Below, piece after piece: positions 14,358 to 18,749 of a DNA stretch of 64,000 nucleotides. Positions within the stretch are counted from its first letter, which is position 1. Every line of letters begins with the position of its first letter. Position numbers and translations under genes: made by a program. This DNA comes from an uncultured Bacilli bacterium. GTDB taxonomy: Bacteria; Bacillota_I; Bacilli_A; RF39; UBA660. The notes under the pieces were generated by a model. The model saw only the letters and a list, made by a program, of their open reading frames with translations. It did no database searches and was not told the DNA's origin. The stretch covers positions 1,257-65,256 of the forward strand of contig CANRDU010000005.1 of NCBI GenBank assembly GCA_947629445.1. Reading direction: 5' to 3'.

Positions 14358-14851
14358 TCGTTATTACCAAGTAGAGGACAAGAATATTCCGATAATAATT
14401 GATTGACCTCCATAATATTGTAAATATGTTCTTGGATACAAAAACGAATAATTAAATCAAAAATCGTATTCTTAGGAAGGGAAAAAGAGGCTTTGGTCAG
14501 TAGTTTTTCAAACTCTGAAGTTGTTAATTCTAAAGCTAGTCCTAAAGCAATAACGGTTTCTTTACTGGGATGATAATTTTCATTTCTTATTTTTGAGAAA
14601 AGTCTTCTATCTATATGTGCTTTATGGTATAAGTCAGAATCTTTCCATCCTTTTTGATCAATTAAAGAAAATAAGTAGGAGGAAAAAGAGTCCTCTTTTG
14701 CTTGATTGATAAAATCCTTTACGGATGACTTTGTTGTCACAGCTTTCTTATAAGCGAAGGTATTAAATTCATCATATAATATGTTTTTTTCTTCTTGTAA
14801 ATATTCTAAGTTTTCCTGTATATATAATCTTAATTTCTTTTGAATATCCAT
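14351..14851 (-). CDS. putative HTH-domain protein
   Basis: C-terminal XRE-like segment HIDRRLFSKIRNENYHPSKETVIALGLALELTTSEFEKLL. RBS AAGGAGA upstream. Confidence 0.5.
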   Translation of the reverse strand: MDIQKKLRLYIQENLEYLQEEKNILYDEFNTFAYKKAVTTKSSVKDFINQAKEDSFSSYLFSLIDQKGWKDSDLYHKAHIDRRLFSKIRNENYHPSKETVIALGLALELTTSEFEKLLTKASFSLPKNTIFDLIIRFCIQEHIYNIMEVNQLLSEYSCPLLGNNEK

Positions 14852-14924
14852 AAAAATGTCTCCTTCTAAGCGACCAAATAAAGTGGTTTTTCTTATATCA
14901 TTATAACATGAAAGGAAGGATTAT

Positions 14925-15515
14925 ATGAAAAAGAAAACAGAAATCGTCTTCTTGCTAGATAGAAGTGGTTCGATGGCGGGATTAGAAAGTGATACGATAG
15001 GAGGATACAATCATTTTATAGAGGAACAGAAAAAAATAAAAGGGGAAGTAAATTTAACAACTGTGTTATTTGATAATAAATATGAGCTCCTTCATGATGG
15101 GGAAGATATTCAAAAAGTAAAACCAATTACTGAAAAAGAATATTTTGTAAGAGGCACAACTGCTCTTATGGATGCTATTGGATTGACCATTACAAAGATT
15201 CAAAAAAGAGCAAAGAATAAGAAAGTCATTTTTGTTATTACTACAGACGGTATTGAAAATGCTTCTAAGGAGTATACTAAAGCAAAAATTAAGACTATGA
15301 TTTCCTCATTAAAAGAGTGGGAGTTTATTTATTTAGGCGCTAACATAGATGCTTATGCAGAGGGAATGTCTATTGGAATTTCTCAAAAAAATATTGCCAA
15401 TTACCAAGCAGACAAAACTTGTACGAAAAAGATGTACTCTTGTATTTCTAAAGCAGTAACTACTCTAGCCAATGATAATTCTTTGGAAGATAGTTGGAAA
15501 CAAGAATTAGAATAA
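14925..15515 (+). CDS. cytoplasmic von Willebrand factor A (vWA) domain protein, TerY-like size
   Basis: MIDAS DxSxS motif in VFLLDRSGSM, plus GTTALMDA and ITTDGIEN. No signal peptide. 196 aa. Confidence 0.8.
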   Translation: MKKKTEIVFLLDRSGSMAGLESDTIGGYNHFIEEQKKIKGEVNLTTVLFDNKYELLHDGEDIQKVKPITEKEYFVRGTTALMDAIGLTITKIQKRAKNKKVIFVITTDGIENASKEYTKAKIKTMISSLKEWEFIYLGANIDAYAEGMSIGISQKNIANYQADKTCTKKMYSCISKAVTTLANDNSLEDSWKQELE

Positions 15516-15523
15516 ATATTTTT

Positions 15524-15552
15524 AAAGATAGTATAAATGTACTATCTTTTTT
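15524..15552 (+). terminator. intrinsic terminator of the vWA gene
   Basis: 10-bp stem AAAGATAGTA / TACTATCTTT with loop TAAATG, followed by a T-run. Confidence 0.75.
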
Positions 15553-15560
15553 GTTATAAT
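15552..15560 (+). promoter_or_regulatory. extended -10 element (TGTTATAAT) upstream of the RT leader
   Basis: TGn-TATAAT immediately after the vWA terminator. No good -35, as is usual for extended -10 promoters. Confidence 0.5.
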
Positions 15561-15566
15561 AAAACT

Positions 15567-15705
15567 GGAAGAGATGTGGAAACACTACTTGCAGCGGGTT
15601 CAGTATATTGCACAAAAATAGGTCTTGCAAGTGACGCAATATATATAATCCTGTCATTAATCGTTACACGATTATTCAATCAGTTCTCTTCCTTGGTGGT
15701 GAGGT
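15567..15705 (+). ncRNA. candidate structured leader / RT-associated ncRNA (hypothetical)
   Basis: Stems ACTTGCA/TGCAAGT (15587-93 / 15626-32) and ATATTGC/GCAATAT (15605-11 / 15636-42) are interleaved. Hairpin TAATCGT-TAC-ACGATTA at 15658-15674. The extent assumes a TSS just after the -10. Confidence 0.3.
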
Positions 15706-16893
15706 ATGTCTGTTTTAAACAGGTTAATAGATGAAGATGCTTGGAATTCTTTTTTACAGTATAAAGAAAGCCAGTATGTACCAGAAAAAGAATGGCAAAA
15801 ACTAAAAGACTACATTCAAAATAAAAAATATTTAAAAATTGCTCAAAAAATCGTTGATGAAAATTATACATTTTCTATTCCTAATAAAAAGATCATTAAT
15901 AAAAATGGTTCCTATAAAAAAAGAATTGTTTATTCTTATTCGGAAGAAGAAACATTGATATTAAAAATGATTCACTATTTATTTTTTGAATATGATAGTT
16001 TATTAGCGCCCAACTGTTATTCTTTTCGAAAAAATATTGGTCCGAAACAAGCTTTTAAACAAGTTACCAAGGGTGTAAAAGGTTATGGATATAAGGTAGA
16101 TATCCATAACTATTTTAATAGTATTTCCGTTTCAAAATTATTAAATATCTTACAAGAAGAAGTTGATAGAAAAGATTATAATTTTTTAAAAAAGATATTA
16201 GAAAATAAAAAAGTTTTGTATAAAGGAGAAGTCACAGAGGAAGAAAAAGGGGTTATGGCAGGAACTCCTATCTCTTGCTTTTTATCCAATTTGTATCTAT
16301 CGAAACTAGACTTTGCTATGCAAGATGTTTGTTATGCAAGATATGCAGACGACATCATTATTTTTGCACCGACGCAAGAAGAATTAACGGATAAGATAAA
16401 ATATATGCATCATTACTTTGCTAGTTTAGATTTGGTAATTAATCCAGACAAGGAGTGTTATATTACTCCAGGAGAACCCTTTGAATTTTTAGGATTTTCT
16501 TATTACCATAAGGTAATAGATTTATCTTCTCATGCTAAGAAAAAAATGAAAGCGAAAATAAGGAGAAAAGCGAAGGCTTTAAGAAGATGGATGTTGCGCA
16601 AAAATCTTTCAAGTGATAAAGCAATTAAGGCTATGAATAATATTTTTAATTATAAATTTTTTTATGAGAAAAAAGGAAAAGAATTAAACTGGAGTATTTG
16701 GTATTTTCCAATATTAACAACGGATAAGGGATTAAGAGAAATTGATCATTATTTCCAAGAACAGTTACGGTATATAAAAACAGGTAATCATCACTTTTCT
16801 AATATGGGGAAAGTTCCTTATTCCTATTTGAAAGAATTAGGATATAGAAGCCTTGTACATGAGTATTATCAATTTCAAAAACATAGGGGATAG
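15706..16893 (+). CDS. reverse transcriptase (RNA-directed DNA polymerase); free-standing, group-II-intron-like fingers/palm plus basic thumb
   Basis: RT motifs in order: KKRIVYSYSEEETLILKMI, CYSFRKNIGPKQA, YKVDIHNYFNSI, GVMAGTPISCFLSNLYL, YARYADDIIIFA (YADD at nt 16342-16353), LVINPDKE, FEFLGFSY, then KKKMKAKIRRKAKALRRW. SD-like GGTGGTGAGG upstream. Confidence 0.9.
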   Translation: MSVLNRLIDEDAWNSFLQYKESQYVPEKEWQKLKDYIQNKKYLKIAQKIVDENYTFSIPNKKIINKNGSYKKRIVYSYSEEETLILKMIHYLFFEYDSLLAPNCYSFRKNIGPKQAFKQVTKGVKGYGYKVDIHNYFNSISVSKLLNILQEEVDRKDYNFLKKILENKKVLYKGEVTEEEKGVMAGTPISCFLSNLYLSKLDFAMQDVCYARYADDIIIFAPTQEELTDKIKYMHHYFASLDLVINPDKECYITPGEPFEFLGFSYYHKVIDLSSHAKKKMKAKIRRKAKALRRWMLRKNLSSDKAIKAMNNIFNYKFFYEKKGKELNWSIWYFPILTTDKGLREIDHYFQEQLRYIKTGNHHFSNMGKVPYSYLKELGYRSLVHEYYQFQKHRG

Positions 16894-16898
16894 CTGTT

Positions 16899-16927
16899 TT
16901 GACATCCTCTTTTTCTTATGATAAAAT
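16899..16927 (+). promoter_or_regulatory. near-consensus promoter between the RT gene and the next gene
   Basis: TTGACA (16899-16904), 17-nt spacer ending in TGA, TAAAAT (16922-16927). Confidence 0.55.
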
Positions 16928-16953
16928 AGGCGACTGTTAAGGGGGAATTTATA

Positions 16954-17670
16954 ATGAAAATATCATCAAAAGACAATTATAAATATTTAAAGGCAGTGGC
17001 AGAATATTTAAGAAAATATAAAAGTGGATATTCTAAGGAAGCACAATACTATATTCGTGATCATTTTTTCCATCCAGAGTCAGCTCGTAAAACACCAGAT
17101 TTAATGATGCAGATATATGCAGAGTGCGATATGTTACCAGAAGAGGAAAATTGGTATTTAGGTTTTTCCAAAATGATTGGAGAGCGTTATGGTTGGGATT
17201 ACCGTGTATTAGAGGTAGGAGGCGGATTTTTTCCAGCTTTTGCAAAATATATGGATGAAGGACAACGAGCACATGGTGCGAGAGGAACTATCACGACTTA
17301 TGATCCTAGATTAGTAACGACTAAATTAGGTGGTATTACTCTAAAAAAAGAGGAGTTCACAAGAGCAACAAATATAGAATCTTACGATATTTTAGTAGGA
17401 ATTATGCCATGTCAATTAACGAGATTAATTATTGATAAGGCAACAGAAGCTCATAAAGAATTTTTTATTGCTATGTGTGGGTGTACACATTTTACAAAGC
17501 AGGAATTACAGGAAAGATATCAAGGTATGAGAAATCCATTTTATAGTGAATGGGTTGATGAGGTTTATGATTATGCTTATGAAAAAGCCCATGATGAGTT
17601 TTTGGTTCGTTTAGAAGATTGTTCTCAATATTCTTTTCCATATCCTGTTGTTAGTACAAAGAAAAAGTAG
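16954..17670 (+). CDS. hypothetical protein with Rossmann/class-I-methyltransferase-like core (UPF0146-like)
   Basis: VLEVGGGFFPAFAKYM (G-rich loop after a beta strand), TTYDPRL, YDILVGIMPCQLTRLIIDKA...FFIAMCG. RBS AAGGGGGA upstream. Family assignment is from memory. Confidence 0.45.
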   Translation: MKISSKDNYKYLKAVAEYLRKYKSGYSKEAQYYIRDHFFHPESARKTPDLMMQIYAECDMLPEEENWYLGFSKMIGERYGWDYRVLEVGGGFFPAFAKYMDEGQRAHGARGTITTYDPRLVTTKLGGITLKKEEFTRATNIESYDILVGIMPCQLTRLIIDKATEAHKEFFIAMCGCTHFTKQELQERYQGMRNPFYSEWVDEVYDYAYEKAHDEFLVRLEDCSQYSFPYPVVSTKKK

Positions 17671-17672
17671 GA

Positions 17673-18413
17673 ATGAATATGAATAAGTATGATAAATTAT
17701 ATGATGAAATTCAAAATGGGCACTATCTTCGGGGGGAACAATTAGCAAAAACAATCATTCAAGAGGTTGAAAAACAATTAGGATTTCATTTTCAATTTCA
17801 GCAAACGGCGGATTATACTAATCAACTTCTTGCGTTAATAGCAACGAAATATCAACCGTATTTTTTGCCACTTCTGGAAAAATATGGGTATAGTTATTTT
17901 GGGGAAATGCAACATATTATTCGTAATATGGGATTTTTTCCTAATCCTCAAGGAATGATAAAGTTTCCGAATTGTTTGGGTTGTCAAATGATTCCTGGTG
18001 GATATGTTTTAGAAACTACGAGAGGGAATATTACAGTATATTATGCATCTCAATATTTTTCTAATTTGAAACCATATATTTTATTGTTTAAGTGTCATAG
18101 TGCTTGTTTGGATGTTTTACATGGTTTCGGAGGTTTGAGTGCAAGTACAGGACTAATTGATTTACCATTAGGTGGGAAACATTATCACTCTTTTATTAAT
18201 TATGGAAATGGCATTATTGATTTAGCTCACAATGCCTACTTATCGAAAGATGATTATGACCTTGCTTTTCACCCTGAGGTATTAAATACAGTTACGGCAG
18301 ATATATTAGAAGAGGAAGAAAAAAGGATTAATCAACAAGAAAGTCTATCAAAACCGAAACAACTTCTCCTTCGATTAGCACTAGATAAACAAATAAAAAA
18401 GAAAGAAACTTAA
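17673..18413 (+). CDS. hypothetical protein with possible Cys-His-Asp (transglutaminase/papain-like) signature
   Basis: LFKCHSACLDVLHGFGG ... GKHYHSFINYGNGIIDLAHN. It starts 2 nt after the previous stop (ATG 17673 or 17679). Confidence 0.4.
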   Translation: MNMNKYDKLYDEIQNGHYLRGEQLAKTIIQEVEKQLGFHFQFQQTADYTNQLLALIATKYQPYFLPLLEKYGYSYFGEMQHIIRNMGFFPNPQGMIKFPNCLGCQMIPGGYVLETTRGNITVYYASQYFSNLKPYILLFKCHSACLDVLHGFGGLSASTGLIDLPLGGKHYHSFINYGNGIIDLAHNAYLSKDDYDLAFHPEVLNTVTADILEEEEKRINQQESLSKPKQLLLRLALDKQIKKKET

Positions 18414-18464
18414 ATTGGAAGTGGTTTATTTTAAATTTCCAACGCCAAACTTAAGTTTCTTTCT
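18397..18464. terminator. large nested inverted repeat / bidirectional terminator
   Basis: Perfect 15-bp outer arms AAGAAAGAAACTTAA / TTAAGTTTCTTTCTT with an inner TTGGAA/TTCCAA stem, between convergent genes. Confidence 0.7.
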
Positions 18465-18749
18465 TTATTTTTTCTTATGAAAAGCAATTTTATAGCGAAA
18501 TCCTGATTTTTCAATGATAATGTAAGAATTTTTTTCTCGCTCATAACGAACTGGTGTTTTTTTTGTGTAGGCATTCATTAGGAGTAACTGCTCGTATTCT
18601 TCGATACCTCCAGACACGTAATAAGTGATTCTTTTGTAGGTATCTGTTTCTGTTACAATAGGACCTTTTTTGATTTTACCAGTATAGGCTGGAAATTCGC
18701 CAAATTCGATTGGTAATTGCATTTTCTTTTTTCCAAATAGTGATAGCAT
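18465..18749 (-). CDS. hypothetical small protein
   Basis: 94-aa ORF with a GAAAGGA RBS. No motif recognised. Confidence 0.45.
   Translation of the reverse strand: MLSLFGKKKMQLPIEFGEFPAYTGKIKKGPIVTETDTYKRITYYVSGGIEEYEQLLLMNAYTKKTPVRYEREKNSYIIIEKSGFRYKIAFHKKK

Follow-up and report, generated by a model that had tools for sequence, protein, structure and literature searches.

An RT-5 RNA with an enclosing helix and a pseudoknot upstream of a UG26 reverse transcriptase gene in an uncultured Bacilli bacterium

The class 2 UG reverse transcriptases (RTs) studied so far carry out gene synthesis or produce homopolymers, telomere-like repeats, or hairpin complementary DNAs (cDNAs), and each of these activities was unexpected. 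To our knowledge, all characterized members (DRT2, DRT9, DRT10, and UG27) bind an adjacent noncoding RNA (ncRNA) and copy part of it. UG27 ncRNA units, for example, template short cDNAs, which are hairpins of 50-100 nucleotides (nt) (bioRxiv 10.64898/2026.09.22.753630). UG26 is a further class 2 UG/Abi group; its prediction as a defence system is inconclusive, and no ncRNA has been reported for it (Mestre et al. 2022, PMC9226505). RT-5 belongs to a set of 19 "RT" motifs that lie near RT genes, with a function suggested only as "perhaps retrons" (Weinberg et al. 2017, PMC5737381). This article concerns a locus at which RT-5 and UG26 stand side by side, in a 64,000-nt stretch of DNA (here called the window) from an uncultured Bacilli bacterium (GCA_947629445.1, contig CANRDU010000005.1, positions 1,257-65,256 of the forward strand). 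We consider an RT-5 ncRNA of about 126 nt at 15567-15692 to be the dedicated partner of the UG26 RT encoded downstream, which would probably use it as a bound scaffold and a partial DNA template; the probability of this reading is put at roughly three in four.

A UG26 reverse transcriptase preceded by an RT-5 RNA

The downstream gene encodes a full-length UG26 RT, a class 2 UG/Abi enzyme. Residues 1-392 align with positions 1-397 of the 398 positions of the PADLOC RT_UG26 profile (472.8 bits, E 1.8e-142), and the translation contains an intact YxDD motif, YADD. The next PADLOC models score in the range of 100-121 bits (UG27 at 121 bits, then UG4 and UG17, the last at 99.7 bits). Scores are 58 and 47 bits for the Drt2 models and at most 60 bits for the retron profiles, and NCBIfam retron_St85_RT reaches 61.6 bits against a cut-off of 235. 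The best NCBIfam similarity is to a group II intron RT/maturase (114 bits, far under the cut-off of 300). Solved structures include no close relative; the best matches are generic RT domains with E values of 2e-13 or weaker.

The leader of this gene is a genuine pseudoknotted ncRNA of the catalogued Rfam family RT-5. An Rfam search of positions 14800-18600 of the window matches 15583-15687 on the plus strand to RF03026 (RT-5 RNA) over the full length of the model, positions 1-104 of 104, scoring 48.6 bits (gathering score 45.7) with an E value of 1.4e-7. The RNA of the window is AT-rich and its score is close to the threshold, yet it has the P3 and P4 helices of the model and the same place upstream of an RT gene. 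An earlier note, made from the letters of the window, had listed here an extended -10, two interleaving helices, a hairpin, and a direct repeat, and every one of these is found at the positions it gave. Its second helix is the main stem of RF03026, its hairpin at 15658-74 is the second hairpin of the model, and its first helix connects the 5' tail of RF03026 to the apical loop of the long hairpin. The Rfam match carries no pseudoknot mark at that first helix; the consensus letters there (GCCUGC and GCAGGC) are not those of the window but likewise complement each other. The earlier note did not recognize the RNA as a catalogued family, and it overlooked the enclosing helix 15567-74/15685-92. 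A literature search found no paper mentioning RT-5, RF03026, or a UG26 ncRNA, or linking RT-5 with UG26.

The association is not confined to this locus. Relatives of the UG26 RT (37-67% identity) were collected from 47 loci (designated L001 onward) in gut and rumen genomes of Bacilli, Clostridia, and Bacteroidales. In 40 of the 47, the Rfam model places an RT-5 RNA, scoring above its gathering threshold, upstream of the RT gene and in its orientation, and R1, a covariance model built from homologues of the window RNA (see below), gives full-length matches in 41, including L006, which Rfam misses. Most loci without RT-5 end within 300 nt upstream. The usual gap between the RNA and the RT gene is 5-100 nt; it widens to 560-660 nt in L040, L042, and L043 and to about 3 kb in L008 and L009, and the position of the RNA is thus independent of the RT start codon. 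RT-5 occurs in one copy in the genome of the window and in none of the other 400 genomes sampled from the class; within its own genus it is present in 8 of 20 species, and among 21 genomes outside the genus in none. These co-occurrence counts indicate an RNA that is specific to UG26 loci and patchily spread. The suggestion of the earlier note of a structured leader RNA with a functional tie to the RT is supported.

Several loci in this sample are unusual. An RT-5 match in the window's genus (G414:C20:15708-15812) scores 71 bits against 49-57 bits in the others, and may be a separately acquired second subtype. L005 is labelled Muribaculaceae but is syntenic with the window's Bacilli clade, with an RT 65% identical, and is probably a misbinned contig. 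At L018, neither the Rfam model nor R1 matches RT-5, and the RNA may have been deleted; an accessory-like open reading frame (ORF) of 92 amino acids (aa) (L018:3653-3933) ends 2 nt before the RT start.

Helices, pseudoknot, and strand bias of the RNA

The RNA reaches past the Rfam model, which spans 15583-15687 only, to 15567-15692. The added parts are an enclosing helix, P1, and a hairpin, P2, both kept in all homologues. Enclosed by P1 are, in order, the single nucleotide U15575, P2, the 5' strand of the pseudoknot, the long hairpin P3, the hairpin P4, and a junction of about 10 nt that leads to the 3' strand of P1. Coordinates of these elements and of the flanking signals are collected in Table 1.

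Table 1. Features of the UG26 locus in the window (letters as RNA or DNA; pairing partners and basis in the last column).
Feature	Position	Strand	Sequence or description	Partner or basis
vWA terminator-like hairpin	15524..15552 (hairpin 15524-15549)	+	AAAGATAGTA, loop TAAATG, TACTATCTTT, then T run	
Extended -10	15552-15560	+	TGTTATAAT	read from sequence; TGnTATAAT kept in clade
Whole ncRNA	15567..15692	+	RT-5 extended by P1 and P2, ~126 nt	RF03026, model R1, fold
P1, 5' strand	15567..15574	+	GGAAGAGA, all purine	pairs with 15685-15692
P2 hairpin	15576..15585	+	GUG(GAAA)CAC	after single pyrimidine U15575
Pseudoknot, 5' strand	15587..15593	+	ACUUGCA	pairs with 15626-15632
First helix of the earlier note	15587-93 / 15626-32	+	ACTTGCA / TGCAAGT	exact complements, 7 base pairs (bp)
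P3, long hairpin	15595..15652	+		Rfam consensus structure and covariation
P3a	15596-97/15650-51	+	part of P3	
P3a2	15599-600/15647-48	+	part of P3	
P3b	15603-10/15637-44	+	part of P3	
Second helix of the earlier note	15605-11 / 15636-42	+	ATATTGC / GCAATAT	exact complements, 7 bp
P3 asymmetric loop	15611-20	+		
P3c	15622-24/15633-35	+	part of P3	
P3 apical loop	15625-32	+		
Pseudoknot, 3' strand	15626..15632	+	UGCAAGU	within P3 apical loop
P4 hairpin	15658..15674	+	7 bp, loop UAC	covariation; in Rfam model
Hairpin of the earlier note	15658-64, 15668-74	+	TAATCGT, loop TAC, ACGATTA	7 bp, 3-nt loop
J4/1, single-stranded junction	15675..15684	+	UUCAAUCAGU	invariant AA 15678-79 (alignments A1 and A2)
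P1, 3' strand	15685..15692	+	UCUCUUCC, all pyrimidine	pairs with 15567-15574
RT ribosome-binding site	15695..15704	+	GGUGGUGAGG	read from sequence; kept in L001-L003
UG26 RT	15706..16893	+	395 aa, catalytic motif YADD	PADLOC RT_UG26, Pfam RVT_1

Homologous RNAs were compared in two alignments: A1, a plain MAFFT alignment in which the flanks and P4 are misaligned, and A2, a segment-anchored, N-padded alignment of 40 distinct RNAs that was used for the pair counts. Standard pairs fill 93.9% of cells in A2, compared with 70.0% when the 3' letters are shuffled and 41.5-48.3% when the partners are slid by 1-3 columns. Every helix is backed by covariation: both partners have changed in 40 of the 46 pairs. 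The pseudoknot, with columns taken from the unfitted alignment A1, is paired in 99.6% of cells, and six of its seven pairs are compensatory. P1 is paired in 94.5% of cells (9 of 10 pairs changed on both sides) and P4 in 98.8% (6 of 6 counted pairs compensatory), and a hairpin of 2-6 bp stands at the position of P2 in 41 of 41 RNAs with 100% pairing. The percentages for P1, P2, and P4 are inflated relative to those for the pseudoknot and P3, because the former were placed by a parser and the latter take their columns from plain MAFFT; the value for P2 counts for less, since A2 was fitted to that hairpin. All 40 RNAs have the G15603.U15644 wobble, GG 15596-97 and C15650 are likewise invariant, and the asymmetric loop of P3 measures 7-10 nt across homologues.

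The model R1 was built from A2, with the pseudoknot left out of its stored structure. It matches the window at 15565-15694 over its full length (E 9e-12), and a count of nested-helix pairs on the alignment derived from it agrees with the A2 count. The minimum-energy fold of 15567-15692 (-32.9 kcal/mol, z -3.51) reproduces the helices P1 to P4 of the covariation model, and none of 200 shuffled sequences folds as well.

The arms of the first two helices of the earlier note interleave, and had been read there as either a pseudoknot or mutually exclusive folds. The first of these stands: the interleaved helices are a genuine pseudoknot rather than chance pairings, with near-complete pairing and compensatory changes. 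Both helices covary, and so nothing compels the second. Coaxial stacking with a short loop across the deep groove is the standard geometry of H-type pseudoknots. Here, a single nucleotide (U15625) separates the 3' strand of the pseudoknot from the 5' strand of P3c, and none separates it from the 3' strand of P3c; with no gap on that side, the strand 15626-15635 can form one continuous helix with 15587-93 and 15622-24. By the H-type rule, the pseudoknot could stack coaxially on P3c, with U15625 alone bridging the deep groove of its 7-bp helix. The CTTGCA direct repeat (copies starting at 15588 and 15624) is a by-product of self-complementarity, since the local loop CUUGCAAG reads identically to its reverse complement. 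The repeat is missing in most homologues, which have GCCUGCG with UGCAGGC there, and is no more than chance.

P1 differs from the other helices in composition. Across 41 RNAs purines make up 96% of its 5' strand and pyrimidines 96% of its 3' strand, compared with purine shares of 43-64% in the other helices. Covariation in P1 exchanges A-U and G-C pairs and almost never flips a pair, and the kept strand bias together with the scarcity of flips indicates that P1 is constrained beyond pairing. The constraint could be, for example, that of a strand used as template, of a polypurine primer, or of a triplex.

P1 also bears on whether the RNA is a retron-like precursor, as was speculated for the RT motifs (Weinberg et al. 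2017, PMC5737381). P1 would then be the a1/a2 repeat, the 2'-OH of G15576 would prime synthesis, and the template of a branched multicopy single-stranded DNA (msDNA) would be the RNA lying 5' of the P1 3' strand. In every homologue the RNA is closed by a terminal inverted repeat (P1, with 8-21 perfect pairs), and an A-Y-G follows the 5' strand of P1 (A in 40/40, Y in 39/40, and G in 38/40 RNAs). However, the conserved G15576 is the first pair of P2 rather than a free branch point, and there is no long msd-type template hairpin. The RT, which favours UG26 over the retron models so strongly, has no VTG or NAxxH motifs in a by-eye reading of its translation, and Pfam and PADLOC detect no retron effector in the neighbourhood. 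A retron-like role is therefore judged quite improbable.

Some homologues carry additional hairpins. In L026:3804-3936, L031 and L037:3712-3837, and L039:3833-3958, an extra hairpin of about 20-25 nt lies in the asymmetric loop of P3; in L004, an extra AT-rich hairpin lies between P4 and J4/1.

With these results UG26 is firmly tied to an orphan RNA motif, and the motif gains an enclosing helix, a further hairpin, and a pseudoknot backed by covariation.

Transcription of the RNA and its possible roles

The sequence TGnTATAAT, followed after 6 nt by (G)GAAGAGA, is shared by the window and L001-L005, which together make up its clade; the extended -10 listed by the earlier note is thus conserved, 6 nt ahead of the first RNA helix, in 6 of 6 genomes. 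A scan for two-hexamer promoters does not list it because there is no -35 element. From the position of the -10, the transcript is predicted to start at about 15567, the first base of P1. The terminator-like hairpin of the vWA gene stands before it, and equivalent hairpins stand before the -10 in L001-L004; the terminator scan did not flag this hairpin because it has only two G-C pairs. In the window's genus, the RNA and the RT gene would lie on one predicted transcript with no terminator between them.

The RT ATG follows the end of the RNA after 13 nt, and in the window and L001-L003 the ribosome-binding site begins 2 nt past P1. A run of at least five U directly follows P1 in 26 of 41 RNAs, all from other lineages, in place of the ribosome-binding site. 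The arrangement in the window would suit a cis-regulatory leader, which the RT would bind so as to control its own translation or the stability of its transcript with no copying into DNA. Group II intron proteins regulate their own translation or transcript stability in this way by binding domain IVa, and a group II intron RT/maturase is the best NCBIfam similarity of the UG26 RT. Against such a role stand the U run behind P1 in the majority of homologues and the five loci in which the RNA lies 0.56-3 kb from the RT gene and still follows 3-98 nt behind the gene for an accessory protein (described below). A pseudoknotted fold of seven helices with invariant single-stranded bases also exceeds what an operator needs, and every class 2 UG ncRNA studied serves as a template. 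A purely regulatory leader is thus considered unlikely.

The preferred reading is that the RNA is both scaffold and template for the UG26 RT. A transcript from the extended -10 would begin at the first base of P1; P1, with its purine 5' strand and pyrimidine 3' strand, encloses P2, P3, and P4, and the apical loop of P3 pairs with the strand just 3' of P2. The RT would probably bind this folded RNA as a scaffold and copy a defined part of it into DNA, an expectation drawn from the behaviour of all studied class 2 UG enzymes. UG27 is the closest of these, UG26 and UG27 being mutual nearest neighbours among the PADLOC models; DRT10 (UG17) is another near relative. Homology of RT-5 to the RNA units of UG27 was considered and rejected, since the extended model matched nothing in a verified UG27 phage locus. 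Run with filters off on the array of the UG27 locus L049, a region of 1.35 kb, R1 returned only noise (at most 9.7 bits), and the published AUC-N7-UANAG motif matched the verified UG27 phage locus no more often than by chance.

Several points weigh against the scaffold-and-template reading. Analysis of the sequence yielded no template, priming site, or cDNA, and the literature search found no publication that links RT-5 with UG26 or describes a UG26 product. Public runs consist of metagenomic DNA and one metatranscriptome whose contigs cover flanking genes only; they give no transcript evidence for the RNA, and the transcript ends are predictions. The ribosome-binding site adjoining P1 in the window's clade would also fit a purely cis-regulatory role. 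The analogy with UG27 is one of enzyme kinship, because the RT-5 model misses the UG27 array, and the A2 columns for P1, P2, and P4 were set by a parser seeking those helices.

A more specific extension is that UG26 and RT-5 represent a further mechanistic type of ncRNA-templated class 2 UG RT. The stacked pseudoknot, the invariant G.U wobble, and the purine/pyrimidine P1 would together position a short fixed template, and the window's genus would hold the minimal form. The candidates for that template are the asymmetric loop at 15611-20 and, alternatively, the combination of J4/1 with the pyrimidine 3' strand of P1. We regard it as possible but doubtful. If it is true, the window's genus, with one transcript and no accessory protein, would offer the simplest version to reconstitute. 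The two-component variant of about 1.35 kb is directly clonable for cDNA sequencing. Telomerase-like A-B-A' repeats in the asymmetric loop are not claimed: 13 of the 35 distinct loops contain a direct repeat of 3 nt or more, compared with 7.8 expected (P 0.017), and the A-B-A' pattern is likewise weakly enriched (P about 0.02-0.03), both post hoc, uncorrected, and with relatedness ignored.

The earlier note also raised a DRT2-type mechanism, in which rolling-circle reverse transcription of a stop-free unit would yield a concatemeric gene. DRT2 is a class 2 UG relative, and the window does contain two stop-free ORFs of 65 aa here, 15537-15734 on the plus strand and 15460-15657 on the minus strand. 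Stop-free stretches of at least 195 nt number 118 in the window, and, as the earlier note itself observed, the ATG of the plus frame (15537) lies inside the hairpin of the vWA terminator. When stops are counted in six frames from P1 to P1 in 41 homologous RNAs, every frame is interrupted in 16, and the best alignment-anchored frame is open in only 12. Among the closest relatives, all frames are interrupted in L003, L004, and L005, and the frames open in L001 and L002 differ. Within 15567-15692 a single frame stays open, and about 28% of shuffled sequences have at least one. The stop-free frames are no more than chance; because they are unconserved in orthologous leaders, an outcome that the earlier note had named as refuting its idea, an open template of the DRT2 type is unsupported, and with a Drt2 score so far below that of UG26 it is extremely unlikely. 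In an RT leader, only conserved stop-free frames could count as evidence of a DRT2-type mechanism, and a tempting false lead is removed.

Neighbouring genes and comparison with described systems

In 35 of the 47 loci (e.g., L010:3299-3847), which are all the non-Bacilli UG26 loci with sufficient upstream DNA, a gene for a protein of about 180 aa lies 3-98 nt ahead of the RNA, and it stays there even where the RT gene is 3 kb away. This accessory protein has MGLF at its N-terminus, a disordered linker, and a conserved C-terminal domain, and it matches no Pfam or NCBIfam family. Its AlphaFold model is a confident one (pLDDT 81), and Foldseek returns only weak matches (E >0.1), to PD-(D/E)xK-fold nucleases such as TnsA, Hjc, and EndA; with matches this weak, a nuclease fold is a lead only. 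These matches would loosely agree with the YcjD/Vsr-like neighbour reported for 9 of 35 UG26 members (PMC9226505). No gene for this protein is present in the window, in L001-L005, or anywhere in the genome of the window (79% complete), and a three-part cassette is not found there.

In the window's clade, the RNA and RT occupy a syntenic chromosomal site, with RTs 61-67% identical and flanking genes 54-89% identical. A gene of 238 aa and of no known family (16954-17670) lies 3' of the RT gene in 5 of 6 syntenic genomes (45-54% identity) and is missing in L002; it may or may not belong to the RT module. In the two loci with the widest spacing (L008:989-4000 and L009:935-4000), the RNA and the RT gene are separated by about 3 kb with two ORFs, of 444 and 512 aa, which looks like a cassette insertion. 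In L040, L042, and L043, the interval from the RNA to the RT gene holds an extra terminator hairpin and encodes a protein of 155 aa whose lipoprotein-like signal reads LGTVSC. A Clostridiales-1 RNA (L044:513-667) and a THF riboswitch (L044:7365-7460) flank one UG26 locus.

Relative to the description of UG26 in PMC9226505, 35 of the 47 loci show the neighbour of about 180 aa ahead of the RNA, and the genome of the window differs from these 35 in lacking it. The RNA resembles the msr-msd RNA of retrons in being closed by terminal inverted repeats and in lying directly upstream of an RT gene; the locus differs from a retron in its RT, which is not of the retron type, and in having neither a long msd hairpin nor an effector gene. 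DRT2 (10.1101/2024.05.08.593200) is also a class 2 UG RT with an upstream leader ncRNA; unlike the template from which DRT2 synthesizes the neo gene, the RT-5 RNA has no conserved open frame, and the RT is distant from Drt2.

DRT10, which is UG17, has a related RT and, like UG26, a compact RNA in which an enclosing helix, a pseudoknot, and a short unpaired loop next to a helix are combined; unlike RT-5, its RNA is pseudo-symmetric with two template loops (10.1101/2025.10.16.682844). No Pfam or PADLOC match to the SLATT effector, the partner in DRT10, is found among the neighbouring genes. The RNA units of UG27 are about 150 nt long and consist of a basal helix, a main hairpin with an internal loop, and a pseudoknot, next to the RT gene, and the UG26 RNA is built likewise; UG27 differs in its arrays of many units, its two essential accessory proteins, and its location in phages (10.64898/2026.09.22.753630). 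Set beside these systems, the element in the window is a new member of a catalogued pair of RNA and RT with a putative function.

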